The notes: a model not told the origin generated them from the sequence alone. Positions 9,936 to 27,870 are shown, counted from the first letter of the stretch. The stretch: DNA of 27,908 nt from Candidatus Sediminicultor sextus (GCA_014894735.1 JADBKX010000069.1:1845-29752), one strand, 5' to 3'. Numbers and translations: made by a program.

Positions 9936-9947
9936 ATGATACCAATT

Positions 9948-13633: not shown

Positions 13634-14525
13634 TGCATAAGATAGAGACGGCGATGCAATTTAATTTCACATCACTTTTATCTGCTCGGGAAGGTATTAT
13701 TACCGGAGCTTTGGTACCCACCAGTGTATGTCCTACCTGGTAATTGGCATAATAGGTAAGTGCTTTGCCAAAGATATTTCCAGCTGCAATATCAGGGACA
13801 ATTAGGATATCGGCTTTACCTGCTACCGGTGAAACAATTCCTTTTTTCTCGGCAGCAAATTCTGAAATAGCATTATCTAAAGCCAGCGGCCCATCGATGA
13901 TACAGCCGATAATCTGTTTTCTTTCATTCATTTTGGAAATCATTCCTGCTTTTACAGTCTCTTCCATATCAGGGTTTATGGTTTCTACGGCTGCTAGCAG
14001 GGCAACCTTAGGAGTCTCTATCCCAAGCTTATGGGCAACTTCAACAGCATTATTTATAATTGCCACTAAAGTCTTCACATCTGGTTTGAGGTTTACTCCG
14101 CCATCACTCATTAATACCAATTTGGGATTCCCTTCTCTTTTATCTTCAAAGATAAAAACATCACTGACGATTTTATCAGTCCTTAAACCCCACTCTTTGT
14201 TTAACACCGCCTTTAAAAGGGTGGCTGTCTTTATCTTCCCCTTGAGGAGTGTCCCTCCTTCTTTTACTCTTTCTACTGCCTTTCGAGCTATATCTTCATC
14301 ATCTTTTGCTCCGATAATCTCTTTTACAAAATTACTTTCGCCTAATAAAGAAAGGGATTTTTCAATTTCTGCTTTATCTCCCACTAAAACTCCCTCTCCG
14401 AATCCGTAATCGTAACAATCTTTTAGGGCTTTCAAAGTTTCAATATCTTCTCCACCGGCAACAATAATTTTTTCTATTCCTTTCATTTTTAAATTGTCGA
14501 ATAATTCTTTAAAACTTTTTATCAT
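13614..14525 (-). CDS. ptb: Phosphate butyryltransferase / branched-chain phosphotransacylase
   Basis: LKGKIKTATLLKAVL, SDGGVN, PKVALLAAVE, DGPLALDNAIS, VAGKADILIVP, SRAD; start moved to ATG 14525 behind AGGAGG. Confidence 0.92.
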   Translation of the reverse strand: MIKSFKELFDNLKMKGIEKIIVAGGEDIETLKALKDCYDYGFGEGVLVGDKAEIEKSLSLLGESNFVKEIIGAKDDEDIARKAVERVKEGGTLLKGKIKTATLLKAVLNKEWGLRTDKIVSDVFIFEDKREGNPKLVLMSDGGVNLKPDVKTLVAIINNAVEVAHKLGIETPKVALLAAVETINPDMEETVKAGMISKMNERKQIIGCIIDGPLALDNAISEFAAEKKGIVSPVAGKADILIVPDIAAGNIFGKALTYYANYQVGHTLVGTKAPVIIPSRADKSDVKLNCIAVSILCSKSRHS

Positions 14526-14568
14526 CTTCGAACCTCCTATACACAAATTACACAGATTAAATTTGATT

Positions 14569-15636
14569 TTAGGAATATGTTTTTACTTTTTCTACCCCAT
14601 CTATTACTCTTATCACTGCTTGGGCCAATGCCTTCATCTCTTCTTCTCCCGGATAAACTACCACTGGAGCTATCCAACCCGTACGATCTTTTATCTTATT
14701 TACTAAAATTTTATTATGAGCTATGCCTCCGGTAAGAATAATTGCTTCAACTTTTCCTTTTAATACTGCAGCCATCGCCCCGATTTCTTTAGCAATCTGA
14801 TAACACATCCCTTCAAAAATTAATTCTGCATATTTATCTCCTTGCTCTATTTTCTTCATTACTTCTCTGACATCATTGGTCCCCAGATAAGAGACAAGTC
14901 CGCCCTGATAAGTAATAAGTTTATACAATTCTTTTTCTGAATATTCACCAGAATAACACAGATGGATTAGAGCCTTATTGGGGAGAGAGCCGGTTCGCTC
15001 GGGTGAAAAAGGTCCTCCGTCATTGGCATTATTTACATCAATTATTTTCCCCTTCTCTATTGGAGCAATGGATATCCCCCCACCGAGATGGGCAACAATA
15101 AGGTTTGATTCCTCGAATTTTTTCCCCTGTTCTTTAGCGTAACGGAAGGCACTAGCCCGGATATTTAAAGTGTGAAGCAAGGATTTCCTTTCTATTCCTT
15201 TTAGCCCGGATATCCGGGCGATATCGGTAAATTCATCAACCGATACCGGGTCAGCGATATAGGCAGGGATATTGATTTCTTCAGCTATTTCATGGGCAAT
15301 AATTCCTCCTAAATTGGAGGCATGTTCTATAGGAGAATTTTTTAGGTCATTGATAAGTTTGTTATTAACCTCGTAAGTCCCGGCTTCTAAAGGTTTTAAT
15401 ACACCGCCCCGTCCTATAATCGCTCTTAATGAATTAGAATCTATATTTTTCTTTTTCAAGGTATCCAAAATTATCTTTTTTCTGACTGGACCTTGTTCTA
15501 ATAGCGATTTAAATTGGGAAAGTTCTTCTGTAGAATGGGAGATAGTCTCCTTAAAAATCTCTTTTCCTTTCTGATTAAATATTGCTACTTTGGTAGAAGT
15601 TGAACCGGGATTGATAACCAATATATTTTCTTTCAT
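14569..15636 (-). CDS. buk: Butyrate kinase / branched-chain carboxylic acid kinase
   Basis: INPGSTSTK, GRGG, HASNLG, DPVSVDE, HTLN, HLGGGIS, GPFSPER, LTGGIA, PGEEEM. Confidence 0.96.
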   Translation of the reverse strand: MKENILVINPGSTSTKVAIFNQKGKEIFKETISHSTEELSQFKSLLEQGPVRKKIILDTLKKKNIDSNSLRAIIGRGGVLKPLEAGTYEVNNKLINDLKNSPIEHASNLGGIIAHEIAEEINIPAYIADPVSVDEFTDIARISGLKGIERKSLLHTLNIRASAFRYAKEQGKKFEESNLIVAHLGGGISIAPIEKGKIIDVNNANDGGPFSPERTGSLPNKALIHLCYSGEYSEKELYKLITYQGGLVSYLGTNDVREVMKKIEQGDKYAELIFEGMCYQIAKEIGAMAAVLKGKVEAIILTGGIAHNKILVNKIKDRTGWIAPVVVYPGEEEMKALAQAVIRVIDGVEKVKTYS

Positions 15637-15654
15637 ACATTCCTCCTTACAAAT

Positions 15655-15689
15655 TAGTATATAGTATATAGTATTTAGTATATAGTAAA
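15655..15689. repeat. Five-unit 7-bp tandem repeat (TAGTATA)
   Basis: TAGTATA TAGTATA TAGTATT TAGTATA TAGTAAA between iorB and buk. Confidence 0.9.
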
Positions 15690-15724
15690 GAAATACGGTG
15701 GTAAGTAATGCGTAAAGGGATATT

Positions 15725-16318
15725 TTATTTTTTTACTTCTTTAAATCCCAGCTCAAAGGCTTTTAAATTTGTCTCAATACTTTTGAGAGGTAAGTTTTCT
15801 TTCATAGACTGAATAACTAAATCTTTATCCACCGGAAATCCAGGGGTAGCAACTGCTGCTCCGAGCAGAACCATATTTTCCGATATAATACTTCCTGCTT
15901 CTTTGGCTATTTTTTGGGCATCAATTATTGATAAATTCTTTATTTTTGCTTTTAGTTCGTCAAAAACAGAAGACAGTTCGGGATATTCCGAAATGCCCAG
16001 TGAAACAGTAAAAGGCACAATAGGAGCACTATTTACTATAACAAAAGAGTTGCAGTTTATCTTATTTAAAGACCTTAGAGCTTCTGTTGGTTCAAAAGCA
16101 ATCAATAAATCCGCTGCTCCCTCTTCAATTAGAGGGCTGTGTGCTTCACCAATTTTAAGTTCAGTTACTACTGTCCCTCCTCTTCGAGCCATTCCATGAA
16201 CTTCACTCATTACCACATTCAAACCTTTTCTCATCGCTGCTTCTCCCACAATAGTAGAAGTTTTAATCGTTCCCTGTCCCCCTACTCCAATAAGCTGAAT
16301 CTTATATATATTTTTCAA
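15725..16318 (-). CDS. iorB: Indolepyruvate:ferredoxin oxidoreductase beta subunit
   Basis: GVGGQG, SEVHGMARRGGTV, FEPTEALR, NMVLLGA; true start is probably TTG 16318 overlapping the iorA stop (TTGA), giving MKNIYKIQLIG. Confidence 0.92.
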   Translation of the reverse strand: MKNIYKIQLIGVGGQGTIKTSTIVGEAAMRKGLNVVMSEVHGMARRGGTVVTELKIGEAHSPLIEEGAADLLIAFEPTEALRSLNKINCNSFVIVNSAPIVPFTVSLGISEYPELSSVFDELKAKIKNLSIIDAQKIAKEAGSIISENMVLLGAAVATPGFPVDKDLVIQSMKENLPLKSIETNLKAFELGFKEVKK

Positions 16319-18192
16319 CCTTGTTTTTTCACCTCTATCGCTTTCTTTGGACATATCTGGGCACAAACTCCACAACCATCGCATAATAATGGGTTGATAT
16401 TAACAGAGCCATCTTTTTCTATATAGATAGCCGGACAGGTAAAATTCTTCACGCAGATTAAGCATTTGGTGCACTCTTCCTGGTTAATGGTATATTTGAT
16501 ACTTATACCTTTTTTCCTGTTTTCCCCATCAGTAATCATAGCACAGGGGTGTTTGGTAATAACCACTGCTATACCTTCAAATTGTAGAGCTTCCTTAAAT
16601 ACTTCTTCTGTCTCTTTTAAATCAACCGGGTCAGTGGTCTTTACTAAACCTACACCTATTCCTCGAGCAATCTTCTCTATGGAAACTTCGGGAGCAGGAT
16701 TACCCATTCCATCCAGGGGTATACCGGGATTGGTTTGACCTCCGGTCATTCCGGTTATCCTATTGTCCATAACTACTAATAAAATCTTATCTTTATTATG
16801 AACAGCATTAATTAAAGGAGGAATACCGGCATGAAAGAAGGTTGAATCTCCGATAAAAGATATTACTTTCTGGTTGGTTGCCTTAGAAAACCCGCAGCCA
16901 ATACCTATACTTGAACCCATAGAAATACAGTAATCCCCCATATTATAGGGGGGTTCCATACCCAAGGCATAACATCCTATATCAGTGGAGTAAATTATCT
17001 CTTCTTCCTTTAATTTTAATTTTTTTATAGCTTTTTTTAAAGCAAAATAAGTTGCACGGTGGGGGCATCCGGGACAGAGTATCGCTGACCGTAAAGGCAA
17101 AGAAAGTTTAGTACTATATTTTTCTCTTTTGATTAATTCTTTTTCTACAATTTTTGCCATCCCAAAAGAGATAATATCCGGATTATATTCATAAATTCTG
17201 GGAAGGGTTCCGTCTAACTTGCCATATACTTTTTTCTTTATATTATATTTTCCTATTATGGCTAAAACTTCTTTTTCCATTACCGGTTCCACTTCTTCTG
17301 CTACCAAAATATTATCAACGCTATTTATGAAGTCTAATACTAATTTCTCGGGGAAAGGATAAGAGAAGGTGAGTTTCAAAATTTTAACTTTCAAATTATT
17401 CTCACTAACCACATCCATCACGTAATTAAAGGCACTACCACTGGTGATAATTCCTATCTCTCTACCACCTTTATCAATTATTTTATTAAGAGGAGATTTT
17501 TCGGTTTTTTCTTCAATCTGTTTTAATTTTTCAATTAATTCTTTACGCATTTTTACCACATATACCGGAGTTACTATGAATTGAGAAGGATCCTTTTTAA
17601 AGTATCCTTTCTCTTTTCCCTGAATAACTGTTCCTAAATTTACTACCCCTCTCATATGAGATATTCTGGTAGTAGTACGTATAAGTATGGGAATCTTAAA
17701 TTGTTCTGATAAATCAAAACCAAATTTCATCAGGTCTTTTACTTCTTGCGGATTGGAGGGCTCGAGTAGGGGAATCCCTGCTAAGCGAGCCATAATCCGA
17801 TTGTCTTGTTCATTCTGTGAAGAATACATAGAAGGGTCATCGGCTGATAAAACAATCATCCCGCCTCGCACTCCGGTATAAACTGCGCTCATAAAAGAGT
17901 CAGCTGCTACATTTAAACCTACATGTTTCATAAAAACAAAGGAACGCAATCCAGCGGCTGCGGCTGCAACAGAAACTTCTAACGCCACCTTCTCGTTTGA
18001 AGAAAATTCAAAATACACTCCTGCTTCCCGGGCAATTTTGTAAAATACATTTCCTATCTCTGAAGAAGGGGTACCAGGATAGGTGGAAACGACCGAAACA
18101 CCGCCTTCTAAAGCCCCTCGAACAGCAGCTTCGTTGCCCAATAAAAACAGTTTTTCTCCTTCTTTTTCAGTTAAAATTTCTTTTACTTTCAA
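16315..18192 (-). CDS. iorA: Indolepyruvate:ferredoxin oxidoreductase alpha subunit
   Basis: LLGNEA, YPGTPSSE, NEKVA, KHVGLN, SSQNEQD, LCPGCPHR, DIGC, GDSTFFH TPP motif, C-terminal 2x[4Fe-4S] CxxCxxC motifs; TTG start with AGGAG SD. Confidence 0.96.
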   Translation of the reverse strand: MKVKEILTEKEGEKLFLLGNEAAVRGALEGGVSVVSTYPGTPSSEIGNVFYKIAREAGVYFEFSSNEKVALEVSVAAAAAGLRSFVFMKHVGLNVAADSFMSAVYTGVRGGMIVLSADDPSMYSSQNEQDNRIMARLAGIPLLEPSNPQEVKDLMKFGFDLSEQFKIPILIRTTTRISHMRGVVNLGTVIQGKEKGYFKKDPSQFIVTPVYVVKMRKELIEKLKQIEEKTEKSPLNKIIDKGGREIGIITSGSAFNYVMDVVSENNLKVKILKLTFSYPFPEKLVLDFINSVDNILVAEEVEPVMEKEVLAIIGKYNIKKKVYGKLDGTLPRIYEYNPDIISFGMAKIVEKELIKREKYSTKLSLPLRSAILCPGCPHRATYFALKKAIKKLKLKEEEIIYSTDIGCYALGMEPPYNMGDYCISMGSSIGIGCGFSKATNQKVISFIGDSTFFHAGIPPLINAVHNKDKILLVVMDNRITGMTGGQTNPGIPLDGMGNPAPEVSIEKIARGIGVGLVKTTDPVDLKETEEVFKEALQFEGIAVVITKHPCAMITDGENRKKGISIKYTINQEECTKCLICVKNFTCPAIYIEKDGSVNINPLLCDGCGVCAQICPKKAIEVKKQG

Positions 18193-18245
18193 TTTTTTTC
18201 TCCTATTTTTTCTTTGTATCGCGTAGTTTAGTCGTCAAATAACTA

Positions 18246-19124
18246 TTAATAATATTTTTTTATATAATTCTTAACGTCATCTCTGGTTCCCTTAAAAGGA
18301 CCCGGTTTTTCCATCTTTAAAGAAACTAAAGCAGCAGCAAAGAGGAGCGCTTCCTCTATTCTTTTATCTAACCTTTCGGTGATATAAGCACTGAAACAGG
18401 TATCACCCCGGCCGGTTCTTCCTGAAAGATTTCTCGGTTTTAAAGGACAGGTATAATGTTTTTTACCATTATAAATTAAAACTTCTTTATTGTGAGTAAT
18501 CATAATTTCCTTTGTTCCCCACCCGAAGAGTATTTCCGCTGCTTTCTTTCTATCTTTTGTTCCCGTCATAATTTCAGCTTCAGCTGCATCAGTTTTTAAA
18601 TAATCAATATAAGGGAGATATTCCTTCTTTTTTTCCCAATCTATAAAGACCATCTCTTTATTTTCCACCACAGTCCTTAAAAACCCTTGAACGTCCAGGG
18701 CAACTCTCCCTTTGTTATGCAGAAATCTTATCATTTCACTATCAAATTCCCCCGAGATGAGGCCGGCAAAATGATATATCTGGGAAGCAATATTATCCGG
18801 AACATCGTCGATAGTGAAGGGATCTGCAATCGATAGAGCAGTACAGGTTCTTCTTTCTCTATCTGCGCTATGATAAATATTTCTGATGGAAGTGGTATTT
18901 CTGGAATCTAAAGCAGTAATATTTTCTTGGGGAATAATAAATGCCTCCAAATACTTTCTATCCCGTGGGGATAACTTAGTCAAAATACCTATTTTATGAC
19001 CGATAGCGTAGGAAGCACAGGATGAATAAAAAACTGCCCCTCCAATTTCCTTTACAGTTTCTCCTTGATATATGTTTTCATCAACAGAGATATGTCCTAT
19101 GACAAAGCTATCATATCTTTTCAT
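18246..19124 (-). CDS. Ribokinase/PfkB-family kinase, predicted PPi-dependent (TM0415-like), copy 1
   Basis: IGHISVD, TTSIRNIY, DVQGFLR, LKTDAAEA, RTGRGDT (GRGD instead of GAGD), SLKMEKPGPF. Confidence 0.9.
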   Translation of the reverse strand: MKRYDSFVIGHISVDENIYQGETVKEIGGAVFYSSCASYAIGHKIGILTKLSPRDRKYLEAFIIPQENITALDSRNTTSIRNIYHSADRERRTCTALSIADPFTIDDVPDNIASQIYHFAGLISGEFDSEMIRFLHNKGRVALDVQGFLRTVVENKEMVFIDWEKKKEYLPYIDYLKTDAAEAEIMTGTKDRKKAAEILFGWGTKEIMITHNKEVLIYNGKKHYTCPLKPRNLSGRTGRGDTCFSAYITERLDKRIEEALLFAAALVSLKMEKPGPFKGTRDDVKNYIKKYY

Positions 19125-19156
19125 TTTTACCTCTTACTCTTTTTTCACATAAAACA

Positions 19157-19196
19157 ATTATACTCCCAAAGCATCCCTTTGAAAAATATTTTTAAA
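19157..19196 (-). promoter_or_regulatory. Promoter of kinase 1 with near-palindromic operator candidate
   Basis: TATAAT at 19157-19162 (minus); TTGAAAAATATTTTTAAA at 19179-19196 overlaps the expected -35. Confidence 0.45.
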
Positions 19197-19212
19197 CTAC
19201 TTTCCATAAATT

Positions 19213-19296
19213 GTTTTGAATAAAAATAAAAATGTGGGAAGGCCGTAATTGAAAAATTGGGGTGATGAATTTCTTAAAGCTTTTTTACCTGAAAAA
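19213..19296 (+). pseudogene. Possible HRDC-domain remnant
   Basis: One frame reads VLNKNKNVGRP*LKNWGDEFLKAFLPEK, resembling the HRDC end motif (L..I.GVG..KLEKYG.EFL); internal TAA at 19246-19248. Confidence 0.35.
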
Positions 19297-19311
19297 ATAA
19301 TTTACCTGTCT

Positions 19312-20412
19312 TTAATTATCGTGTTTAGAAAAAGGAGAGGTTTTCTTTAATTTGTAGTTATTGCCGGTACTTTCTATAAGTTCGTTAACTCTTTGCAGGC
19401 TATATTTATAAAACTTCTTGTAACGGGGCTTTAATTCCAAACACAATACTCCATTGTAATTTTTAAATAGGCGGAATATCTTATCATAGGGAATCTCTCC
19501 CCAGCCTACAGGCATATGCATATCACCTATGCCAAACTGAATTAGATCGATATCTCGATTTTCAGGTGAGACTTTGGGTTTGCCAAAACAATCATGAATA
19601 TGCAGATGTTTTATATACGGTAGGGCTAATTTTATAGAATCTAAAAATTTGAAGTGATAATATTTGGAGGCAAGATAAGCATGTCCAAAATCAAGGGTAA
19701 TTCCTACGTTATCCCGATCAATTTTTTTAACTTGGTCAACTAATTCTTCAATCTTCGTTCCATATTTATACTTTCTAACTTCTTGCAAAAAGATGGGCTT
19801 GGGTGTCTGAGGAGAAAGGCTATAAGAAGGAATTACTCTACTATTACCAAATCGTCTTGATAATTCCCAGAGAGTCTCTTCCTCTAACTCAGGACAAGTA
19901 TTTTCAATAACAATGGTCACCCCTAAATCTTTAGCAAAGTCAGCTAATTCTTGCAAAGTTTTTACTTCTATCTTCTTTGATCTTTCAATCTTGTTTAGAG
20001 AAGGTACTGTTAGTATTCCATTTTGTCCTAACCATTCCCCTCTAAACTCTTCCTGTTGTAAAGGAATTTTTCCACTATGGTATACAAAAATTTCTGCTCC
20101 TATAGCATTAGTAAATTCAATTCCAGATTTGAAGATTTCTTTTTGTAATTTAAAATTACCAGAGTCCATCAAATTTAGCAGATCGGGACCGTGAATAGTA
20201 TATTTTAATTTAAATTCCTTCAGGATGTCTGTAATTGCTCTGGTTTGCAGCCAATTCAGTTTCCCCTTAAAGATTGCATCGACTCCGTGGACAGGTATTT
20301 CGGCATAATCAAAACCGATATCTTGAAAATTACCTAAAGTCTTCTCTAATAGATCTAAGTCACCATCTATAGTGGAAGAATCTACGTTTATTCCAATCCC
20401 TTTTATATGCAT
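19312..20412 (-). CDS. Sugar-phosphate isomerase/epimerase family (xylose isomerase-like TIM barrel)
   Basis: GFDYAEIP, TIHGP, VYHSG, IENT, TLDFGH, HLHIHD, DMHMPVGWG, LELKP metal-site motifs. Confidence 0.85.
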   Translation of the reverse strand: MHIKGIGINVDSSTIDGDLDLLEKTLGNFQDIGFDYAEIPVHGVDAIFKGKLNWLQTRAITDILKEFKLKYTIHGPDLLNLMDSGNFKLQKEIFKSGIEFTNAIGAEIFVYHSGKIPLQQEEFRGEWLGQNGILTVPSLNKIERSKKIEVKTLQELADFAKDLGVTIVIENTCPELEEETLWELSRRFGNSRVIPSYSLSPQTPKPIFLQEVRKYKYGTKIEELVDQVKKIDRDNVGITLDFGHAYLASKYYHFKFLDSIKLALPYIKHLHIHDCFGKPKVSPENRDIDLIQFGIGDMHMPVGWGEIPYDKIFRLFKNYNGVLCLELKPRYKKFYKYSLQRVNELIESTGNNYKLKKTSPFSKHDN

Positions 20413-20455
20413 AGTTTTCGCTTCAAACCATAAATATTTTTATTAATTATTTCAC

Positions 20456-20483
20456 ATTATAGCACAATCAAATTCATATACAA
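20456..20483 (-). promoter_or_regulatory. Sigma70 promoter of the TIM-barrel gene
   Basis: Minus strand TTGTAT-N16-TATAAT with a TG extended -10. Confidence 0.55.
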
Positions 20484-20523
20484 GTATAGTTAAAAATTGT
20501 TTAAAATAATTTTTTTCAAATAG

Positions 20524-21285
20524 TTAATTTTCTTTTATATTTTTTAGAATAATATCTCTGCCATAATTAATCTCTTTTATCAATATATGTCCAACCTTTG
20601 GAGTATTTATTTCAGCATCCGTTGTATCAACAATGTAAGTCTCCAAATCACAATCTTTTTTCAACCCTTCAATAAATTTAATCTGCTCTCCTCGGTTATT
20701 ATATATTTTATTTCCGCGAATTGTATTTTTTAAAAGAATTTCAACGCCTAATGGGTCATGGATTTTTCTACATATCTCTTTATCTAAGTCATTTTGATCT
20801 ACCTCGATATCGTATATACCAGCTCTCCCGCATATTGGGCAAAATTCTACAAATGGATGATTCTTATTTTCTGTCGTTACCTCATAATGGGCGCTCAGAG
20901 CCAATCGATAAAATATTATATTCCCATTGCTTAACTTCAATTTTACCCTTTCAGATTTATTATTCATCAAATTTTTGTAATAATATCTAATATGTAATTG
21001 ATGATCGTGGCTGTTAGCAGGATTATCTATATCTGTGTAAGGTTGCAAACCTTTATATCTTCCTTCCGTATCGCTTCCTTCATTACTATTAAGCAAAATA
21101 TGGCGTAAACGATAATTTTCGCTAAAATTATTCTTAATATTACAATATTTCATTAAATTAAATATTACTAAATAAACAGCTTCAAGATATCCTTCTACAA
21201 TATTGCAATTTACATAAAACCAGATATTAGGATATCTCGGTATTTCTTTTGAGATAATATCTTTTTTTGGTAATTTAAAATCCAT
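20524..21285 (-). CDS. Orphan hypothetical protein with His/Cys metal-binding-like motifs
   Basis: Start moved to ATG 21285 (MDFKLPKK) behind GGAGGA; motifs HDHQLHIRYYY, AHYEV and CPIC-x19-CRKIH. Confidence 0.75.
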   Translation of the reverse strand: MDFKLPKKDIISKEIPRYPNIWFYVNCNIVEGYLEAVYLVIFNLMKYCNIKNNFSENYRLRHILLNSNEGSDTEGRYKGLQPYTDIDNPANSHDHQLHIRYYYKNLMNNKSERVKLKLSNGNIIFYRLALSAHYEVTTENKNHPFVEFCPICGRAGIYDIEVDQNDLDKEICRKIHDPLGVEILLKNTIRGNKIYNNRGEQIKFIEGLKKDCDLETYIVDTTDAEINTPKVGHILIKEINYGRDIILKNIKEN

Positions 21286-21388
21286 TTTTATCCTCCGCTT
21301 ATAAATATAATTAGAAGTAATTATTGTTCTCTTGTGTATACACAAAATATTAGTTGTATGGATTATTTTACTTTATTTCATGGTTTAA

Positions 21389-21417
21389 CTATACGACATA
21401 ACTTTTAAAAATCCTTC
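21389..21417 (-). promoter_or_regulatory. SigH-like promoter upstream of the orphan
   Basis: GAAGGATTT-N11-GTCGTATAG, same geometry as 7473-7501 with GTAT for GAAT. Confidence 0.35.
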
Positions 21418-21422
21418 TTTTC

Positions 21423-21472
21423 TTGAAAAATATTTTAGGAGATTGTTTTTCCGTTTTATTCTTTGCTATAAT
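21423..21472 (+). promoter_or_regulatory. Promoter of kinase 2 with the operator candidate shared with kinase 1
   Basis: TTGAAAAATATTTT 21423-21436 is identical to 19179-19192; TGCTATAAT extended -10 at 21464-21472. Confidence 0.5.
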
Positions 21473-21529
21473 AAATGGACAAAGAAAGTAAAATTATTAA
21501 ATTATTGACTTTATATTGGAGATAATAAA

Positions 21530-22417
21530 ATGGAAACTAACACTAAATTTTATGATATTGCTTTTATAGGACATTACACCAAAGACACAATTGTTTCTGC
21601 TTCGGGCATCAGAGTTGTTGATGGTGGTGCCTTTAATTATGGTGCTAATGTAGCTGCAAGAATGGGGTTAAAAGTAGCAGCAGTTACCCGTTTGGCAGAA
21701 GAAGATTTTCATGTAGTAGAAAAACTCAAGGGTTTAGGTGTGGATGTATTCGCACATATCTCCCCTCAGTCTACTTGTCTGCGTCTGGAATATCCCACTT
21801 CCGATGTTGATGAACGGGTCATATATGTAACCAGCTCAGCAGGTCCCTTCACCCCGGCTGAAGTAGAAAAAATTCAAGCCCGGGCAATTGTTGTGGGCGC
21901 ATCTATGCGTGATGAGGTTAGCTTGCAACTGATAGAGGAACTGTCGAAAAAGAAAACTATTCTTTCCGCTGACGTGCAGAGCTTTATCCGGGTAAATGAT
22001 AATGGTAAATTAGTTCCCAAGAAATGGCCGGAAAGAGACGATATATTTGCCTGTTTGGATATTTTAAAAACTGATGCAATAGAAGCGGGACTTTTATTCG
22101 GTGAATCTGATCTCTATACAGCTGCTCAAAAAATGCATGATCTGGGACCTAAAGAAGTAATCATCACTCACCGTGAAGGTTTGTTAGTCTTTGCCGATGG
22201 CAAATTTTATGAAGAAAAATTTTTCCCCAAAGAAATTATCGGAAGAAGCGGACGAGGAGATACTTGTATTGCTTCCTATACAGCCAAACGGTTAAGTGCT
22301 TCCCCTCAAGAAGCAACAACTTGGGCAGCGGCAGTAACCAGTTTAAAGATGGAAGCCGAAGGACCTTTCCAACGAACTATGCAAGAGGTTAATAATCTTA
22401 TTTATAATAAATATTAA
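21530..22417 (+). CDS. Ribokinase/PfkB-family kinase, predicted PPi-dependent (TM0415-like), copy 2
   Basis: IGHYTKD, ADVQSFIR, LKTDAIEA, FFPKEIIGRSGRGDT, SLKMEAEGPF. Confidence 0.9.
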   Translation: METNTKFYDIAFIGHYTKDTIVSASGIRVVDGGAFNYGANVAARMGLKVAAVTRLAEEDFHVVEKLKGLGVDVFAHISPQSTCLRLEYPTSDVDERVIYVTSSAGPFTPAEVEKIQARAIVVGASMRDEVSLQLIEELSKKKTILSADVQSFIRVNDNGKLVPKKWPERDDIFACLDILKTDAIEAGLLFGESDLYTAAQKMHDLGPKEVIITHREGLLVFADGKFYEEKFFPKEIIGRSGRGDTCIASYTAKRLSASPQEATTWAAAVTSLKMEAEGPFQRTMQEVNNLIYNKY

Positions 22418-22501
22418 GAATACAAATTAAGTTAGCAAACCCTATTTTTTAGTAGGTTTTAGGTCTCCGGATAAACCATCTTAAAGAACAAAAAATCGTT
22501 T

Positions 22502-23599
22502 TTATTTTTTAATCTCCTCATAAGGTATAACATGTAAACTTTTTTCCTTTAAAATTACAGATACTTCCTCTCCTATAGAATAAATTTTATGCTCCTGAGG
22601 GTTAGTAATCTCTACAGTAAGGAGATTCTTATCAACTTCAATTTCGTACACCATCCTAGAGCCAAGATAAATTACCTGGTTGATTATGCCATTAATAGCA
22701 CCTGATTTCTTAGGTTCTAGTTCTACAGATTCAGGTCTAATAATCAGTAAAATTTTATCTCCTTCTGAAAAGGTATTTTTTAATATATAAACTTTATATT
22801 TTACCCCTTTTATATCGACTTCAATTTCTTCCTGAGATAAAATATTTGCCACTCGTCCCTCTAAAAAGTTCGCTTTACCGATAAAATCAGCTACAAAATA
22901 ATTAACCGGATGGCTATATATTTCCTGAGGGGTGCCTATCTGTTGAATTTTACCAGCATTCATAATAACTACTCGGTCAGAAAGAGTCATTGCCTCTTCC
23001 TGGTCATGAGTAACATAGACAGATGTTATTCCAACTCTTTGTTGTATTTTACGAATCTCTAATCTGGTGGATACTCGCATCTTGGCATCGAGATTGGAAA
23101 GAGGTTCATCAAGCAGTAGCACCTTTGGTTCCATAATTAGAGAACGAGCCAGACTAACCCGTTGCTGTTGACCTCCGGAAAGTTGTGCTGGAGATCGATT
23201 ATTTAACCCTTTTAAACCCACCAAATTCATAATGGTTTCTGTTCTTTCTCGAATATTTTTTTCTTTCTCTCGATGAATCTTTAATCCATAAGCAATATTT
23301 TGATATACAGTCATATGGGGGAATAGAGCATAATTCTGAAATACCATAGTAGTAGGTCGCTGATTGGGAGGAGTAGTAGTTACTTCTTCCCCGTCAATAA
23401 AGATTTCCCCAGAAGTAGGAAGCTCAAAACCAGAGATCATCCGAAGGGCAGTAGTTTTTCCACATCCAGATGGCCCTAAAAGAGTAACTAGTTCCCCTTC
23501 TTTTACTTCTAAATTCACCTTATCAACTGCAATAACAGTATCTTTTTTACTTCCAAAAATTTTTACTAGATTTTTGAGCACAAGGTAATCTTGTTTCAT
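22502..23599 (-). CDS. ABC importer ATPase (FbpC/AfuC/PotA class) with TOBE domain
   Basis: GPSGCGKT, VFQNYALFPH, LSGGQQQ, LLLDEP, YVTHDQ. Confidence 0.95.
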   Translation of the reverse strand: MKQDYLVLKNLVKIFGSKKDTVIAVDKVNLEVKEGELVTLLGPSGCGKTTALRMISGFELPTSGEIFIDGEEVTTTPPNQRPTTMVFQNYALFPHMTVYQNIAYGLKIHREKEKNIRERTETIMNLVGLKGLNNRSPAQLSGGQQQRVSLARSLIMEPKVLLLDEPLSNLDAKMRVSTRLEIRKIQQRVGITSVYVTHDQEEAMTLSDRVVIMNAGKIQQIGTPQEIYSHPVNYFVADFIGKANFLEGRVANILSQEEIEVDIKGVKYKVYILKNTFSEGDKILLIIRPESVELEPKKSGAINGIINQVIYLGSRMVYEIEVDKNLLTVEITNPQEHKIYSIGEEVSVILKEKSLHVIPYEEIKK

Positions 23600-23625
23600 A
23601 AAAAATCCTTTCCTTTTCTAAATAA

Positions 23626-25335
23626 TTAGCCAATAATATCGACAGTTCTTACCCCTTTACCAATACGATTCACTATTAGCTGAATAATTCCTAAGGCAAT
23701 TAATACAATAATTATCAATAAATTGGACATCGCTGCTGCTTGGGCATATCTGCTATTATCCACAAAACCCAGAATAGCTATAGTAATTAAATTCCATTTG
23801 CCCGATACTACAAAAATTACAGCACTGATAGCAGTCATAGCTTTTACAAAATTATAAGCAAGACCGGAGAAAAAAGCCGGAGCAATCATAGGTAAGGTAA
23901 TTCTGCGAAAAGTAGTATTACTATCTGCACCCAAGTCAGTTGAAGCCTCCTCGATAGAAGGATCAATTTGTTGAAGAGCAGCAATTCCAGAACGTATTCC
24001 CACTGGCATATTTCTAAATATAAGAAGGATGATAATAATCCAAGCTGTTCCGGTCATTATAAAAGGAAGCAGCACAGTTTTTTGATTAAAGGCTAAGATA
24101 TATCCTATTCCAACTACAGTCCCGGGAACAGCAAAAGTAAGCATAGAAATAAACTCCATTACACCGCGGCCAATAAATTTTTTCCTTATTACCAGAAAAG
24201 AGATAAAGATGCCTATAATACCGGCTATAGGTGTAGCGACAGCTGAAAGAACTAAAGAATCAATTAAATAATCTTTACCTACCTGATACATCTCTACATA
24301 ATGTTTTAGAGTTAAGGTGGGGTTAACTCCCCAGAGGGTCTGAAAAGAACCATGAACAATAGTTCCATAAAAAAGAAAAACAATTCCGGTAAAAATAATA
24401 CAGCAGGAATATACCGGTAGCTTTATATACCATTCCAGCTGCTTAATAGTTGCGCCGGTTGGCTTTCCGGTAACTGTAACATATGATTTTCGAGAAACCC
24501 AGTATTTTTGCAGAAAAAAAGCAACTATGGTTGGAATGAACAGAAGTATCGCCAGAGTAGAACCCCGAGATAAATCATACATCCCGGTAATTTGCAAATA
24601 AGCCTGCACTGAAAGAACTCGATAATTCCCAGAAATAACCATAGGGTTCCCGAAGTCAGCTAAAGATTGGATAAATACCAAAAGCCAGGCACTGGCAATA
24701 CCCGGGGTAGATAAAGGTAAAGTAATGGTAGAAAACACTTTTACCCTCGATGCTCCCAAATCCATAGAAGCCTCTTCTAATGATGGGTCAATAGCTTGAA
24801 GAATACCGTAAAGAACTAAAAAAGCTGTAGGGGCATAAGCAATCGTTTCAACAAGTATCAATCCTGCCAACCCATATATGGTATAGTCACCAATAATTTT
24901 AGTTAAAAAAGGATTAAGACTTCCTGCTCTTCCAAAGAGAAGAATGGCTGATAGTGCAACTACAAAGGGTGGGGAGATAATAGGGAAGGTCGCAGTTACC
25001 CGAAAGAAATTTTTAAAGGGCATTGGAGTTCTGGTAAGGGCATAAGCAAAAATAAACCCAATTATAGTACCTATGGTTGCAGTGTACACCCCTAAAAGCA
25101 TACTATTAAAGAAAGGTTGATAATAATACCTTTTGGAAAAAATTGCTGAATAATTGGAAAAATTCAATTGCTTATCAATAAATAAACTTGTTTTAAAGAC
25201 TTGAAATATCGGAAATACCACAAACACTATTAAGCAATAAAAAATAGCCAGTATAGATATAAATAGTAATGGTTCTTTCCATATCAAACGGAGATTCCCT
25301 ATGACTTCTTGTATTTTTCTTTTTGAACTGTTCAT
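23626..25335 (-). CDS. ABC importer permease, fused double TM module (FbpB/AfuB class)
   Basis: About 12 hydrophobic segments; two EAA loops, EEASMDLGAS and EEASTDLGAD. Confidence 0.93.
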   Translation of the reverse strand: MNSSKRKIQEVIGNLRLIWKEPLLFISILAIFYCLIVFVVFPIFQVFKTSLFIDKQLNFSNYSAIFSKRYYYQPFFNSMLLGVYTATIGTIIGFIFAYALTRTPMPFKNFFRVTATFPIISPPFVVALSAILLFGRAGSLNPFLTKIIGDYTIYGLAGLILVETIAYAPTAFLVLYGILQAIDPSLEEASMDLGASRVKVFSTITLPLSTPGIASAWLLVFIQSLADFGNPMVISGNYRVLSVQAYLQITGMYDLSRGSTLAILLFIPTIVAFFLQKYWVSRKSYVTVTGKPTGATIKQLEWYIKLPVYSCCIIFTGIVFLFYGTIVHGSFQTLWGVNPTLTLKHYVEMYQVGKDYLIDSLVLSAVATPIAGIIGIFISFLVIRKKFIGRGVMEFISMLTFAVPGTVVGIGYILAFNQKTVLLPFIMTGTAWIIIILLIFRNMPVGIRSGIAALQQIDPSIEEASTDLGADSNTTFRRITLPMIAPAFFSGLAYNFVKAMTAISAVIFVVSGKWNLITIAILGFVDNSRYAQAAAMSNLLIIIVLIALGIIQLIVNRIGKGVRTVDIIG

Positions 25336-25367
25336 ATTTTAAATCCAATAATATTTATGGCGATAAT

Positions 25368-25417
25368 ATAATAATCCCTGCTACTAAAAATAATCAACTC
25401 GTAACAGGGATTATTAT
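25368..25417 (-). terminator. Intercistronic stem-loop between SBP and permease (stabiliser/attenuator)
   Basis: ATAATAATCCCTG (25368-25380) and CAGGGATTATTAT (25405-25417) form a perfect 13-bp stem, 17 bp with one G-U on the transcribed minus strand. Confidence 0.7.
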
Positions 25418-25446
25418 TTCTCTATTATCTGGTTAACTAAATTTAA

Positions 25447-26451
25447 TTATTGTCCAATTCTATCTCTCCAGGCAGTTACCAATTCATCTTTGTGCTCGCC
25501 TGCCCAGATGGCGTCATACTCGATTAATTTTACTTTATCTAAAGTTACAGCACCTTCGGCAACTGTTGCTTTGGGATTAATAGGCAAACGGCTATATTTC
25601 TGGAATAAATCCTGTGCTTGTTTAGTAAAACACCAATCGATAAATTGCTTACCCAATTCAGGTTCAGGACCACCTTTAATTAAAGAAAGACCTCCAACTT
25701 CATAACCAGTTCCTTCTGAGGGGAAGGTCATAACTACCGGATATCCTTCATTTATACCTTTAGCAACGATATCGTGCGAAAAAGCAATTCCCACTGCTAT
25801 TTCACCTAATCCAACCATCGGTATACATCCAGTTCCTGATTTAGTATATTGAAAAATACTTTGTTTATCAAATTCTTCCCACCAGTTCAGAGCTTTTTCC
25901 AGACCAAGCATTTGGATAAGAGTTGCATAAGTAGTATATGAAGTACCAGAAGTATAGGGATAAGCTATAGCAACGTTTTTCTTAAAAGCTGGGTTCAAAA
26001 GTTGAGACCAGGAAGTCGGTGCTTCTACCTTATGTTCCTTTAAAAAATTTATATTAGAAACGAATCCAATGGCACCGGTATAAAATCCTGTCCAGGCCCA
26101 ATCTATAGCATGAAATGATTCTGGCAATTCGAAATCTGTATTAGGTTTGTAAGGTTCCAGTAATCCTTTTTTAGCAGCGTTTATATGATCTGTATTAGAG
26201 CCGGCATGCCAAACACTGGCTTGGGGATTTGCGGATTCTGCTTCCATTCGAGCTGCAACCTCACCAGAGGACATTCTCACCCATTCCACATCGATTCCAG
26301 TTTCTTTTTCAAAAGCCTCAATGTAATACTGGGCCTCTTCGGTATCAAATGCTGTATACATATGAAGCACCTTACCTGCTGCCAGACCCGTTGCAAACAC
26401 GCTACCTACCATAACCATGATTAATAACAATACTAAAGTTAACCTTTTCAT
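25447..26451 (-). CDS. ABC solute-binding protein, AfuA/InoE-like (sugar- or inositol-phosphate binding predicted)
   Basis: Start moved to ATG 26451 behind GAGGAGG; Sec-type signal peptide without a lipobox Cys; NPQASVW, TSGTSYT, YTKSG, FSHD, EGTGYEVGG motifs. Confidence 0.88.
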   Translation of the reverse strand: MKRLTLVLLLIMVMVGSVFATGLAAGKVLHMYTAFDTEEAQYYIEAFEKETGIDVEWVRMSSGEVAARMEAESANPQASVWHAGSNTDHINAAKKGLLEPYKPNTDFELPESFHAIDWAWTGFYTGAIGFVSNINFLKEHKVEAPTSWSQLLNPAFKKNVAIAYPYTSGTSYTTYATLIQMLGLEKALNWWEEFDKQSIFQYTKSGTGCIPMVGLGEIAVGIAFSHDIVAKGINEGYPVVMTFPSEGTGYEVGGLSLIKGGPEPELGKQFIDWCFTKQAQDLFQKYSRLPINPKATVAEGAVTLDKVKLIEYDAIWAGEHKDELVTAWRDRIGQ

Positions 26452-26607
26452 AAAAAACCTCCTCATTTATTTTTTTTATGATTTTTACCATACAGAATAT
26501 ATAATCTTTATATTCCTGTATATAATATACTACGCTTTTTATTAACCTCCCTTCTTTTTTTATAAATAATTTTAAAAAATTAGAATTTCTCAAAATTATC
26601 TAACCTT

Positions 26608-27651
26608 TTATAATATAAGCAGCCTACCCTGGGGATTAAATTTTGCATACAAGGCTTTTCGTATCTCCTGTTTTTCTCTATAAGATCTTAGGTGATCATA
26701 ACCATCTTCCTGCCAAGGCGGAGAAGTAAAGAGCGCTTGGTTAAATGCCTGTAAAAGTTTATCTTCAAATTCCCCTTTGTACTCCCTCTTTATAAATCGC
26801 TGAAATGCCTGAGGAAAATTATTCCAGGCTCCCAGTTCTTGGCCAGGAGACGTGGGATAAAAAAATCCGTTATTTGCTTTTACTGCTTTTAAATCTCCAC
26901 CACCATCACCGATCATTAATACCTGATCATCTTCATAATTGCCTGCCCTTTTTGCTACTTCAATGTGGTGTCCCTTTGACCCCATTTCCTGACCGGCAAT
27001 AATTTGGACATATCGAGCAATCCCTTGAGCTTCCCAGTAATTTGCTAAATCTGAGTATGGAGTTTTAGAAACAATTAATATATCTGCATATTGAGCCATT
27101 AATTCTAAACATTCTTTTACCTTGTCAAAAGGCGGAATCTTTGCAGAAATATGCGGGAACATTCTATTTACAGCCTCACTCCAACCTAAAAGTTTATATA
27201 AAGACAAATCAAGAGGATTTTGATTTAAATATTCCTCCAAACTTGGATTACCTAATCCTAATTTATTCTCTTTAGTATAGGCGATATATTGGTTTAAAGG
27301 TTTTATATTAGGTAGTTTTATATGTCCTTCTTGTAATACTTGCTGAACATCTGTCCTGTTTTGAAGAGCAGTGAGGGTAAGTTGGATGGCAATAAATCTA
27401 TTACATCCTCTATCCACAGAAAAAAGATTGTAGTATTCAGCAACTTCTCTAAAATAAGACTCGATGCCACATAACTGATAAAATTCCATAAATTGTGGAT
27501 GAAAAATCAACATCTGTTTTCCATTCATATTATCAGTAACACAACCATCGGTATCGATAGCTATTAAAAAATCTTTTGTTCTTTTAAATTTTCTTAATTG
27601 TTGTTCTGCATCTTCCTTTATCTGTTTTTCGTTAAGCCTGGGTAAGGCCAT
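26608..27651 (-). CDS. HAD-superfamily phosphatase
   Basis: Motif I IDTDGCVTD, motif II VSKT, motif III SKGHH, motif IV MIGDGGGD. Confidence 0.85.
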   Translation of the reverse strand: MALPRLNEKQIKEDAEQQLRKFKRTKDFLIAIDTDGCVTDNMNGKQMLIFHPQFMEFYQLCGIESYFREVAEYYNLFSVDRGCNRFIAIQLTLTALQNRTDVQQVLQEGHIKLPNIKPLNQYIAYTKENKLGLGNPSLEEYLNQNPLDLSLYKLLGWSEAVNRMFPHISAKIPPFDKVKECLELMAQYADILIVSKTPYSDLANYWEAQGIARYVQIIAGQEMGSKGHHIEVAKRAGNYEDDQVLMIGDGGGDLKAVKANNGFFYPTSPGQELGAWNNFPQAFQRFIKREYKGEFEDKLLQAFNQALFTSPPWQEDGYDHLRSYREKQEIRKALYAKFNPQGRLLIL

Positions 27652-27673
27652 TATTTCATCTCCTTCCTGATAT

Positions 27674-27868: not shown

Positions 27869-27870
27869 AT

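Follow-up and report, generated by a model that had tools for sequence, protein, structure and literature searches.

What phosphoryl donor and what acceptor are used by two paralogous kinases that lie close together in a genome fragment of Candidatus Sediminicultor sextus, and with which other genes do they work? The window, by which we mean the whole stretch of 27,908 nucleotides analysed here, encodes two PfkB proteins: copy 1 (P0001, 292 aa; positions 18246-19124, minus strand), a ribokinase-family kinase of the TM0415 type ('T1') with the signature of pyrophosphate (PPi) use, and copy 2 (P0002, 295 aa; 21530-22417, plus strand), a member of a clade that we call T2. They share 33% identity along their whole length (E 1e-45), and the genome holds no third copy. 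An earlier note, made from the sequence alone, had pointed to the RxGRGD, KxDxxE and SLKM motifs, and both open reading frames carry them (KTDAAEAE, RTGRGD and SLKMEKPGP in copy 1, together with TTSIRNIY and DVQGFLR; KTDAIEAG, RSGRGD and SLKMEAEGP in copy 2, together with STCLRLEY and DVQSFIR). The family of PPi-using kinases and its signature, including the RxGRGD motif, were already proposed by Nagata et al. 2018 (PMC5931981). The interpretation of the pair in that note is largely right but not new.

Both proteins are close kin of TM0415 of Thermotoga maritima. In a phmmer search of the PDB, TM0415 (1VK4, 5YSP, 7E4L) was matched at E values of 2.6e-48 (copy 1) and 5.8e-47 (copy 2), far above chance, and the next PfkB structures followed at 1e-4 to 1e-7. 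AF2 models of the two copies (pLDDT 97.8 and 97.2) superpose on TM0415: the seven best Foldseek matches of both are all TM0415 structures (TM 0.85-0.94, rmsd 1.7-2.6 Å), with the complexes 5YSP and 5YSQ at the top of the list, followed by the ATP-dependent MI3K of T. kodakarensis. Each copy has a ribokinase fold with a medium-sized lid, nearest to that of TM0415 (TM 0.86-0.94 and rmsd 1.7-2.3 Å to 5YSP, 5YSQ and 1VK4).

In TM0415, K171, R229 and R232 bind PPi, while F221, R232 and M266 occlude the ATP pocket (PMC5931981), and the earlier note had given these facts accurately. Gap-free HMMER alignments to TM0415 place the residues of both copies on this donor site, exactly as had been assigned: both have K, R, R and M, and position 221 is occupied by L in copy 1 and by F in copy 2. 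Thus, K171, F221, R229, R232 and M266 correspond to K177, L228, R236, R239 and M271 in copy 1 and to K180, F231, R239, R242 and M274 in copy 2. The three basic residues of the PPi subclass are kept in both copies, as are the catalytic GxGD Asp (D234; D241 in copy 1, D244 in copy 2), the Mg-site acids D139 and D173/E176 (D144 and D179/E182; D148 and D182/E185) and T204 (T210; T213). The occluding pair F221/M266 is complete in copy 2 (F231/M274) and reads L228/M271 in copy 1, where F221L replaces one of the five published signature residues. This leucine is a common natural variant and no outlier: of the 98 kinases from related loci, 52 have F at 221, 22 have L, 11 have I, 7 have Y and 2 have V, and R229 and R232 are kept. 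We found no mutational data on position 221 in PMC5931981. Since these facts on TM0415 are correct and the donor-site residues map in both copies, PPi dependence of both is the best-supported prediction. PPi, to the exclusion of ATP and ADP, is the donor of TM0415 and of two homologues with the signature; Nos. 48 and 111, two of the four such homologues assayed in 2018, had no activity on any of 14 acceptors (PMC5931981). The acceptor is not proven by the signature alone.

On the acceptor side, copy 1 is TM0415-like. The residues that define the 1-kinase (S9, D11, I76, N78, S/C89, L116, Q141, R145 and T230) are matched by S13, D15, I80, N82, C94, L122, Q146, R150 and T237, and a cysteine at position 89 is accepted in the acceptor table of Nagata 2018 (Supplementary Table 1; PMC5931981). 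Copy 2 departs from this set, with T, L, L, I, S and S at positions 9, 76, 78, 89, 116 and 230, and its acceptor side is remodelled at Y16, T17, L84, L86, I98, S125 and S240. Seven T2-specific positions lie on the acceptor side, and none of their residues is basic; of the four residues that contact inositol, D11, Q141 and R145 are the same throughout T2. A tree of the GRGD kinases, which the earlier note had proposed as a check, places the T2 kinases in a single clade of 21 T2 rows and one fragment (support 78) within a clade of 24 rows (support 98). The copy-2-type kinases are one old, separate clade.

This type of acceptor site has been listed before. Homolog No. 55 of Nagata 2018 (OGD17089.1, A2V47_06395, Atribacteria RBG_19FT_COMBO_35_14) shares 93% identity with copy 2 and is entered in Supplementary Table 2 as a putative PPi-dependent kinase for some other acceptor (PMC5931981). 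Its acceptor residues (D,L,Q,R,T,G,G,A,L,I,S,S,D) are exactly those of copy 2, and the 18-residue pattern of the two is identical. No. 55 was listed as a candidate; the assayed homologue with the same pocket type is No. 49 (Levilinea saccharolytica). The T1 paralogue that neighbours No. 55 in its MAG (locus L004) was passed over by the five-residue filter of 2018 because it carries L221, and neither this paralogue nor the link to a transporter is discussed in PMC5931981. No. 49 has N78L, L116S and T230S in common with copy 2, yet M/L instead of L/I at positions 76 and 89, and its phosphorylation of myo-inositol is PPi-specific, occurs at positions other than 1 and gives three products (PMC5931981). 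According to the title of PDB entry 7E4L, N78L/S89L turns the 1-kinase TM0415 into a PPi-dependent myo-inositol 3-kinase. Leu at 78 and Leu/Ile at 89 occur naturally in copy 2 (L86, I98) and in the whole T2 clade, and in the phmmer search copy 2 scores best against 7E4L, above wild-type TM0415. Compared with 7E4L, T2 is further altered, with Y at 8, T at 12, S at 116, S at 230 and W at the position of copy 2's W265. Because copy 2 has S at position 116, unlike MI3K of T. kodakarensis and the 7E4L mutant (V or L), a prediction of the 3-OH for copy 2 is only an analogy. The earlier note had proposed PPi as the donor of both copies and a new acceptor for copy 2. Its donor signature holds; by analogy, however, another hydroxyl of the same cyclitol is at least as likely as a new acceptor, because No. 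49 uses myo-inositol and because of the effect of N78L/S89L in 7E4L.

The genes around the pair add a transporter to this picture. Convergent with copy 2 and 84 bp from it lies an ABC transporter ATPase (ABC_tran and TOBE_2; 22502-23599, minus strand), with, at higher coordinates on the same strand, a fused two-domain ABC permease of 569 aa (23626-25335), which is AfuB/PhnU2-like but below the equivalog cut-off, and an AfuA-type substrate-binding protein of 339 aa (25447-26466). The nearest solved relative of the latter is AfuA (4R72-75, a sugar-phosphate binder; E 1.6e-47), in which H205, D206 and E229 contact the sugar and S37 and T150 the phosphate (Sit 2015). All five contacts are kept in the window's protein (S67, T175, H231, D232, E256), and the T/H/D/E contacts are kept in 21 of the 26 binding proteins that adjoin these kinases. 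Beyond it lies P0274 (26608-27651, minus strand), a HAD-superfamily protein of 347 aa with DTDG as motif I, GDGGGD as motif IV and a large cap, predicted to be a phosphatase or phosphomutase; genes of this type are the first of the transporter operon in the Atribacterota loci L004, L009 and L014. Directly upstream of copy 1, on the same strand, P0003 (366 aa; 19312-20412, minus strand) encodes a xylose-isomerase-like TIM barrel, for which an assignment as IolO was rejected (19 bits against a cut-off of 300); its best NCBIfam match is a weak one to the CbiR phosphodiesterase (32 bits, cut-off 105), and homologues of it lie near such kinases in Atribacterota and, at a single locus (L119), in Anaerolineae. 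Between the two kinases, the orphan P0004 (20524-21345, minus strand) has no family match and is conserved only in Atribacterota loci (L004, L008), and its place in the module is uncertain.

The earlier note had missed that the pair is a conserved module with transporter and inositol genes. T1 and T2 kinases lie at most 10 kb apart in Atribacterota, Thermodesulfobacteriota (Syntrophaceae), Spirochaetota and Chloroflexota (Anaerolineae), and this recurrence of the pair across four phyla, next to transporters and to enzymes that act on inositol or inositol phosphates, is new. Also new is the T2 clade itself, which adjoins copy-1-type kinases in these phyla and whose members often reside inside IolG/M/N/O inositol operons, usually directly after an ABC importer. 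T1 and T2 are within 10 kb of each other in 9 of 20 Anaerolineae loci, an ABC ATPase gene directly adjoins T2 in 17 of 36 loci, and within the window's order IolN is found above the cut-off in 28 of 52 genomes (21 of 26 with T2, 7 of 26 without), although all these counts overstate independence because the compared genomes are related to each other. At loci L044, L048, L111-L115 and L121, both kinases lie within operons with IolM, IolN and IolO above the NCBIfam equivalog cut-offs. Locus L085 has phytase, GDPD, PhoD and HAD genes alongside the kinases, and L118 has two GDPD genes.

No IolM, IolN or IolO equivalog is present within the window, and the assembly as a whole (90% complete) likewise yielded neither IolM nor IolN. 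A 2-kb contig carries an IolG-like gene with 68% identity to that of locus L044, and the genome encodes a membrane pyrophosphatase (H+-PPase). Contigs covering both kinases and the transporter genes were found in four metatranscriptome runs at 88-95% identity, which points to related strains, with carry-over of DNA possible.

Based on these findings, we consider it likely that both copies are PPi-dependent cyclitol kinases of the TM0415 subclass, that copy 2 acts on another hydroxyl, and that they form a unit with the importer and with inositol catabolism. Phosphoryl transfer would occur between PPi and a cyclitol hydroxyl, most likely that of myo-inositol. Judging from TM0415, the distal phosphate of Mg-PPi would be held by the KxDxxE lysine together with both arginines of RxGRGD, the space of the adenosine would be filled by the GRGD Arg, the SLKM Met and the hydrophobic residue at 221, and the GRGD Asp would serve as the catalytic base. 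Copy 1, with the same inositol-contacting residues as TM0415, is predicted to make or use Ins(1)P. The pocket of copy 2 is remodelled by N78L, S89I/L, L116S and T230S and by a Tyr and a Thr beside the catalytic-site loop, and by analogy with the N78L/S89L form of TM0415 copy 2 would most likely act on the 3-OH of the same ring and so form the enantiomeric phosphate; an unrelated acceptor is less likely. The importer of the unit would carry a phosphorylated polyol or sugar. What the data show directly is the family, the mapped residues, the fold, the clade and the conserved gene neighbourhood; PPi use, the hydroxyl attacked, the imported ligand and the direction in vivo are deduced from them.

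Other readings of the pair concern its direction and its role. The physiological direction may be reversed (InsP + Pi to inositol + PPi), which we regard as unlikely: the importer would supply inositol monophosphates that derive from lipid head groups, from the breakdown of phytate or from di-myo-inositol phosphate, each paralogue would take one enantiomeric or positional isomer, free inositol would pass to IolG, and the ester bond would be saved as PPi for the membrane pyrophosphatase or PPi-dependent glycolysis. Such a reversal is suggested by the catabolic operons L044 and L048, which start with an AfuA-type importer and hold only T1 and T2, without a phosphatase, by the retention of all AfuA phosphate and sugar contacts, by the links to phytase, PhoD and GDPD at L085 and L118, and by this genome, which encodes an H+-PPase and in which a search for IMPase-family genes gave none. 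The kinase direction is, however, favoured by a standard free energy of roughly 5-10 kJ/mol, and the reverse needs a high Pi/PPi ratio and removal of inositol. InoE of T. maritima is said, in work attributed to Rodionova in 2013, to have bound myo-inositol phosphate in vitro, which counts for the reverse direction. The same direction is favoured by the naming of InoEFGK as an inositol-phosphate transporter (PMC11767280), by the failure of T. maritima to grow on free inositol (PMC3750489) and by the high Km for inositol, which fits inositol as a product. Against it, the HAD protein of the Atribacterota operon could simply hydrolyse the ester, the Anaerolineae transporter before T2 has an SBP_bac_8 protein without a link to phosphate esters, and this assembly yielded neither IolM nor IolN. 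We think it doubtful that the two are in vivo no kinases at all, but inositol-phosphate:phosphate phosphotransferases, each specific for one enantiomer (Ins(1)P or Ins(3)P + Pi to inositol + PPi), with imported substrate from bacterial/eukaryotic and archaeal lipid head groups, phytate breakdown or di-myo-inositol phosphate. If true, an energy-starved subsurface fermenter would keep as PPi the ester bond that phosphatases waste, which would explain both the place of TM0415 in a catabolic operon and the lack of growth of T. maritima on free inositol.

A non-inositol acceptor for copy 2, perhaps for both copies, which is the new acceptor of the earlier note, also seems rather unlikely. The Km of TM0415 for myo-inositol is 12 mM, and its authors suspect other genuine acceptors, such as pathway intermediates (PMC5931981); the three products of No. 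49, the inactivity of Nos. 48 and 111, the seven T2-specific positions, the embedding of the kinases in IolM/N/O operons and an AfuA-type binding protein that suggests a phosphorylated import substrate agree with this. Yet D11, Q141 and R145 do not vary in T2, No. 49 uses myo-inositol with the same pocket, N78L/S89L alters only the attacked position as far as the 7E4L title tells, and the T2-specific residues include no basic one, although one would expect this for the binding of a second phosphate. Anabolic salvage, as proposed for the ATP-dependent MI3K of T. kodakarensis, is improbable: MIPS and IPCT-DIPPS, enzymes for di-myo-inositol phosphate, are encoded in further MAGs of Atribacteria (bioRxiv 10.1101/536078), the isomer predicted from copy 2 is the one used by those pathways, and salvage would be needed here because MIPS was not found in this genome; but this assembly yielded neither a CDP-alcohol phosphatidyltransferase nor a DIPPS-type gene, and across four phyla the kinases reside in catabolic IolG/M/N/O operons, not biosynthetic ones. 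It is very improbable that one or both copies are ordinary ATP-dependent PfkB sugar kinases or inactive paralogues with a coincidental signature. The L for F at 221 in copy 1 does leave some room in the former adenosine pocket, but R at the 'x' of GxGD is incompatible with the small residue that ATP-dependent members need for nucleotide binding, the PPi ligands are complete, the catalytic Asp is retained, and both genes are intact, 77-95% identical within Atribacterota and present in RNA libraries.

The closest known system is TM0415, the PPi-dependent myo-inositol 1-kinase of T. maritima (PDB 1VK4, 5YSP, 5YSQ), with the same fold and 34-36% identity in the Foldseek alignment. Both copies share with it RxGRGD, K171, T204, M266, D234 and the Mg-site residues, copy 1 alone also the inositol contacts D11, N78, Q141 and R145 together with I76, L116 and T230, and relatives of these kinases are likewise located in IolG/M/N/O operons. 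In contrast, copy 1 has L at 221 and C at 89, copy 2 deviates at 9, 76, 78, 89, 116 and 230, and here two paralogues lie together and adjoin an AfuA-type importer, whereas TM0415 belongs with the two-permease InoEFGK system. The source also differs, being an Atribacterota MAG of ~35% GC and no hyperthermophile, with its DNA in permafrost, sediment and soil samples. The next-best structural relative, the ATP-dependent myo-inositol 3-kinase MI3K of Thermococcus kodakarensis (PDB 3W4S, 4XF7; TM ~0.8, 18-21% identity), has a hydrophobic L77/L87 pair like that of T2 but lacks K171, R229 and R232. PPi-dependent phosphofructokinase, a sugar kinase that is driven by PPi close to equilibrium and works in either direction in vivo in anaerobes with a PPi economy, belongs to an unrelated fold family (PfkA) and is a functional analogy only. 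For the importer, the counterpart is AfuABC of Actinobacillus/Citrobacter, which imports hexose-6-P, fructose-6-P and sedoheptulose-7-P (PDB 4R72-75; PMC4546632) and whose S37, T150, H205, D206 and E229, fused permease and single ATPase all have equivalents here. The nearest NCBIfam models to the importer of the window are PhnS2/U2/T2, with scores below the cut-off, and this importer has inositol genes together with PPi kinases and a HAD protein as its partners in the genome.

Both kinase genes in the window are intact PfkB genes, with copy 1 (P0001, 18246-19124, minus strand) encoding 292 aa and copy 2 (P0002, 21530-22417, plus strand) encoding 295 aa. They are on opposite strands, separated by 2.4 kb, and their products share 33% identity over the full length. 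No third such gene was found in the assembly, in which the window is part of contig C163 (a MAG of 1.43 Mb in 174 contigs, about 90% complete), and all close relatives of the window's genes carry the label Atribacterota or Candidatus Atribacteria. As an earlier note had anticipated, standard annotation stops at the family name: Pfam gives PfkB alone (42 and 53 bits) and no NCBIfam model is passed by either copy. Among all PDB sequences, the best match of both is TM0415, the pyrophosphate (PPi)-dependent myo-inositol 1-kinase of Thermotoga maritima (1VK4, 5YSP/5YSQ and 7E4L; E = 2.6e-48 for copy 1 and 5.8e-47 for copy 2), which other PfkB structures trail by 40 orders of magnitude. AF2 models based on 78 and 89 homologues (pLDDT 97.8 and 97.2) gave the same placement in Foldseek, where the top seven matches of both are TM0415 entries (TM 0.85-0.94, rmsd 1.7-2.6 Å), followed by the ATP-dependent inositol kinase of T. 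kodakarensis or a plant ribokinase.

The donor-half alignments to TM0415 are free of gaps, and the residue mapping is therefore unambiguous. K171, F221, R229, R232, M266 and D234 of TM0415 correspond to K177, L228, R236, R239, M271 and D241 in copy 1 and to K180, F231, R239, R242, M274 and D244 in copy 2, and T204, D139, D173 and E176 of TM0415 are conserved in both copies as well. Every motif quoted in the earlier note is present, the equivalents it had named (K, R, R and M, with L in copy 1 and F in copy 2 at position 221) were borne out, and the donor residues do fall on PPi-site positions of TM0415. Copies 1 and 2 resemble TM0415 in fold and have its full set of PPi-binding and catalytic residues.

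This kind of enzyme was described by Nagata et al. 2018 (PMC5931981), who showed that TM0415 makes Ins(1)P with PPi and not with ATP or ADP, that PPi is bound by K171, R229 and R232 (alanine mutants retain 3-11% activity) and that the adenosine pocket is filled by F221, R232 and M266, in agreement with the residues named in the earlier note. They also put forward the RxGRGD motif and, filtering by the five residues, collected 50 candidate enzymes. Homolog No. 55 of that study (OGD17089.1) is an orthologue with 93% identity to copy 2 and exactly its residue pattern, so that the inference drawn for copy 2 was already in print; the tables hold no further Atribacteria entries. The overall interpretation is consequently correct in substance but not new, having been published for a 93%-identical protein, and the window contributes no new kind of enzyme. 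PPi-dependent enzymes of the ribokinase family rest on one paper and three assayed proteins, and our comparison shows the family to be large by now, with 385 clusters at 50% identity (E <= 1e-30). PPi-specific, position-specific inositol kinases are of practical use, PPi being a far cheaper donor than ATP.

In locus L004, from the MAG of No. 55, the copy-1 orthologue (90% identity) carries L at position 221 and would therefore fail the published five-residue filter. We typed the residues of 98 kinases from 81 loci and of 121 cluster representatives. Where both arginines are present, residue 221 is F (52), L (22), I (11), Y (7) or V (2), and position 266 by M, L or I. Judged by sequence, L221 of copy 1 is inside natural variation, and the signature at this position would best be read as 'large hydrophobic residue'. 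At this residue the published filter appears too strict, and no mutant of position 221 was found in PMC5931981. Close relatives that lack both arginines have A or P at 229, C at 232 and the acceptor pattern TDFNQLQRT; they include about 25 cluster representatives and a 291-aa ORF in an Anaerolineae locus (L119), where it lies between a P0003-like TIM barrel gene and a GFO gene. These are presumably ATP-dependent cousins, which could serve as an outgroup and in work on donor switching.

A scan of species-representative genomes for copy-1-type kinases returned 80 loci, none from Thermotogota, and loci were processed by ORF calling, clustering and kinase typing into T1 (copy-1/TM0415-type) and T2 (copy-2-type, with a remodelled acceptor side). 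T2 lies within 10 kb of T1 in Atribacterota (L004, L008, L009, L014), Thermodesulfobacteriota (Syntrophaceae and 'delta proteobacterium'; L044, L048, L077) and Spirochaetota (L052, L064, L066, L067, L070, L075, L079). Of all neighbours of T2-type kinases, an AfuA-type binding protein is the most conserved; its cluster is represented in 14 of the 15 loci with T1 and T2, the remaining locus stopping at a contig edge. Five 'AfuA-cluster' proteins of spirochaete T1-only loci, in which SSGNR replaces the AfuA contacts, were not counted as AfuA-type, and the 'PeriBP4' cluster, in which LacI regulators and binding proteins are mixed, was set aside. In spirochaetes, the binding protein, permease, ATPase and T2 genes share a strand and T1 is divergent. 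L044 and L048 hold a string of ten genes encoding the AfuA-type binding protein, permease, ATPase, IolG-like, IolM-like and IolN-like proteins, IolO (357 bits vs an NCBIfam equivalog cut-off of 300), T1, a second TIM barrel and T2.

Anaerolineae extend the pattern, with a match at E <= 1e-40 in 85 of 301 sampled genomes. Among 20 T2 loci from this class, T1 is adjacent or nearby in nine and an ABC ATPase gene directly precedes T2 in seven, and these operons also hold IolM (577 bits vs 450), IolN (532 vs 245) and IolO (356 vs 300). The Anaerolineae binding protein ahead of T2 has no PDB relative and only a weak PRK11622 match, and JGI labels its relatives 'putative spermidine/putrescine' binders; it is therefore neutral on an inositol-phosphate ligand there. 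The second TIM barrel, 'TIMa' (about 278 aa; L044 10136-10972, L111 4255-5091), is distinct from IolO and occurs with T2 in Thermodesulfobacteriota and Anaerolineae and in a single locus of Atribacterota (L014); its weak top matches, QuiC dehydratase and IolO, are both far under cut-off. The metagenomic T2 locus L085 also encodes a beta-propeller phytase, GDPD, PhoD, HAD and UxaE, and in L118 two GDPD genes adjoin the kinase pair.

Matches occur in 34 of 86 Atribacterota genomes, mostly two per genome (T2 plus T1), and are concentrated in the window's order. There, IolN is above cut-off in 28 of 52 genomes, that is in 21 of the 26 with T2 vs 7 of the 26 without it, counts that are descriptive and not a test because the genomes are mutually related. 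The window's own assembly (about 90% complete) yielded neither IolN nor IolM, probably owing to an assembly gap; a 2-kb contig carries an IolG-like gene with 68% identity to that of L044. Across at least four phyla, two anciently diverged kinase subtypes occur together, accompanied by importers and inositol genes.

In the window, copy 2 is convergent with a minus-strand unit of four genes encoding a HAD protein, a binding protein, a fused permease and an ATPase. The binding protein (25447-26466, minus strand) would be annotated 'Fe3+' or '2-aminoethylphosphonate'. Its best solved relative is AfuA (4R72-75, E = 1.6e-47), others being AfuA-like 8X1A and the pyridoxal-phosphate binder P5PA (6WCE), vs E values of 1e-5 to 1e-10 for true Fe3+ binders. 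AfuA binds G6P, F6P and S7P, contacting the sugar through H205, D206 and E229 and the phosphate through S37 and T150 (Sit et al. 2015, PMC4546632). All five contacts are present here (H231, D232, E256, S67 and T175), and this conservation predicts a phosphorylated cyclic polyol or sugar as the ligand of the window's importer. The HAD protein (26608-27651, minus strand, 347 aa) has intact DxD and GDxxxD motifs (DTDG and GDGGGD) and a cap approximately 150 aa long; no relatives were found in PDB or NCBIfam, and the Atlas returned only generic HAD clusters. Its gene leads the importer operon in Atribacterota only.

Upstream of copy 1 on the minus strand, P0003 encodes a xylose-isomerase-like TIM barrel (366 aa), for which IolO was rejected by NCBIfam; its weak top match, CbiR phosphodiesterase, is well under cut-off, and in the Atlas it falls only in generic 'sugar phosphate isomerase/epimerase' clusters. 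Downstream of copy 1, iorA (625 aa, ferredoxin domains), iorB, butyrate-kinase-like and phosphotransbutyrylase genes occupy 13614-18192 (minus strand); the group starts 53 bp past copy 1 on the same strand, and iorA is also close to the kinase pair in the spirochaete loci L066, L070, L075 and L079. Between the kinases lies the orphan ORF P0004 (20524-21345, minus strand), which has no family match and is conserved in the Atribacterota loci L004 and L008; it probably starts not at the listed TTG but at an ATG 20 codons further on. At 9921-11289 (plus strand), a gene for an AbiEii-type nucleotidyltransferase toxin (253 aa) is preceded by that of a 205-aa partner. Promoter and terminator sites in 13400-27908 were no commoner than in shuffled sequence, and the scan therefore yields no operon boundaries. 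Metatranscriptome contigs from four runs in three studies (marine sediment, lake water, soil and sediment), with 88-95% identity to the window, cover copy 1, copy 2 and its upstream region, the ABC genes and the binding-protein/HAD pair, and lend weak support to transcription of these genes in nature, the contigs being from relatives and DNA carry-over being possible. In one such contig (run X16, record 9), 15926 is joined straight to 18223, so that iorB adjoins copy 1 without iorA in a related strain.

To our knowledge, the reason for an inositol kinase in a catabolic operon that first oxidises free inositol has never been explained. TM0415 has a Km for inositol of 12 mM (PMC5931981), inositol does not support growth of T. 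maritima (PMC3750489), and the InoEFGK system of this species is annotated as an inositol-phosphate transporter (PMC11767280). Together with the phospho-sugar-type importers and phosphatase-free operons seen in our comparison, these observations point to imported inositol phosphates as the likely real substrates. In the 2013 work of Rodionova, InoE reportedly bound inositol phosphate. PPi-linked kinases run near equilibrium, and a backward reaction is thus possible, in which InsP + Pi -> inositol + PPi would feed IolG and save bond energy. This would suit operons that open with such an importer and hold no phosphatase, and the window's genome has a membrane pyrophosphatase and no IMPase-family gene that we could find in the assembly; however, the HAD phosphatase candidate shares the importer operon in Atribacterota and the reverse reaction is uphill by roughly 5-10 kJ/mol under standard conditions, and we consider this direction unlikely. 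Anabolic salvage is improbable: no MIPS, CDP-alcohol phosphatidyltransferase or IMPase-family gene was found in the (incomplete) assembly, which argues against a biosynthetic sink. PF01066, the CDP-alcohol phosphatidyltransferase family, is present in 13 of 14 control genomes and has no match in the window's assembly, a sign of missing sequence or else of unusual lipid synthesis. The module of T1, T2 and importer and the direction of the reaction are the points that deserve follow-up, as the comparison makes the purpose of the kinases testable: does each subtype serve one enantiomeric inositol phosphate, in which direction do they run, and does the AfuA-type importer take up inositol phosphate?

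Both kinases are predicted to move phosphate between PPi and a cyclitol hydroxyl. On the acceptor side, copy 2 differs from TM0415 by S9T, I76L, N78L, S89I, L116S and T230S. A comparison of 42 T2 with 144 TM0415-type sequences added Tyr at 8, Thr at 12, Pro at 81 and Trp at copy-2 residue 265, and there are no basic residues among those specific to T2. In a FastTree of 207 rows, T2 forms a single clade (21 T2 rows and one fragment, support 78) within a slightly larger clade with support of 98; T2 is an old subfamily and did not arise by local duplication. Two characterized proteins bear on the suggestion of the earlier note that copy 2 may have a new acceptor, which we soften to probably another hydroxyl of inositol, itself a putative acceptor. 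No. 49, the Levilinea homologue (N78L, S89L, L116S, T230S), is PPi-specific on myo-inositol and forms monophosphates other than Ins(1)P (PMC5931981), although as an analogy it is limited in not being regiospecific. The second is 7E4L, titled 'Conversion of pyrophosphate-dependent myo-inositol-1 kinase into myo-inositol-3 kinase by N78L/S89L mutation', in which these two are the sole changes from TM0415; L86 and I98 are the natural residues of copy 2 at the mutated positions, whereas T2 differs from 7E4L in having Ser at position 116. By analogy with these proteins, T2 enzymes are most simply read as keeping the inositol ring but attacking a different hydroxyl, probably the 3-OH. Copy 1 would then act at O-1 and copy 2 at another position, probably O-3, where attack would yield the enantiomer of the product of TM0415.
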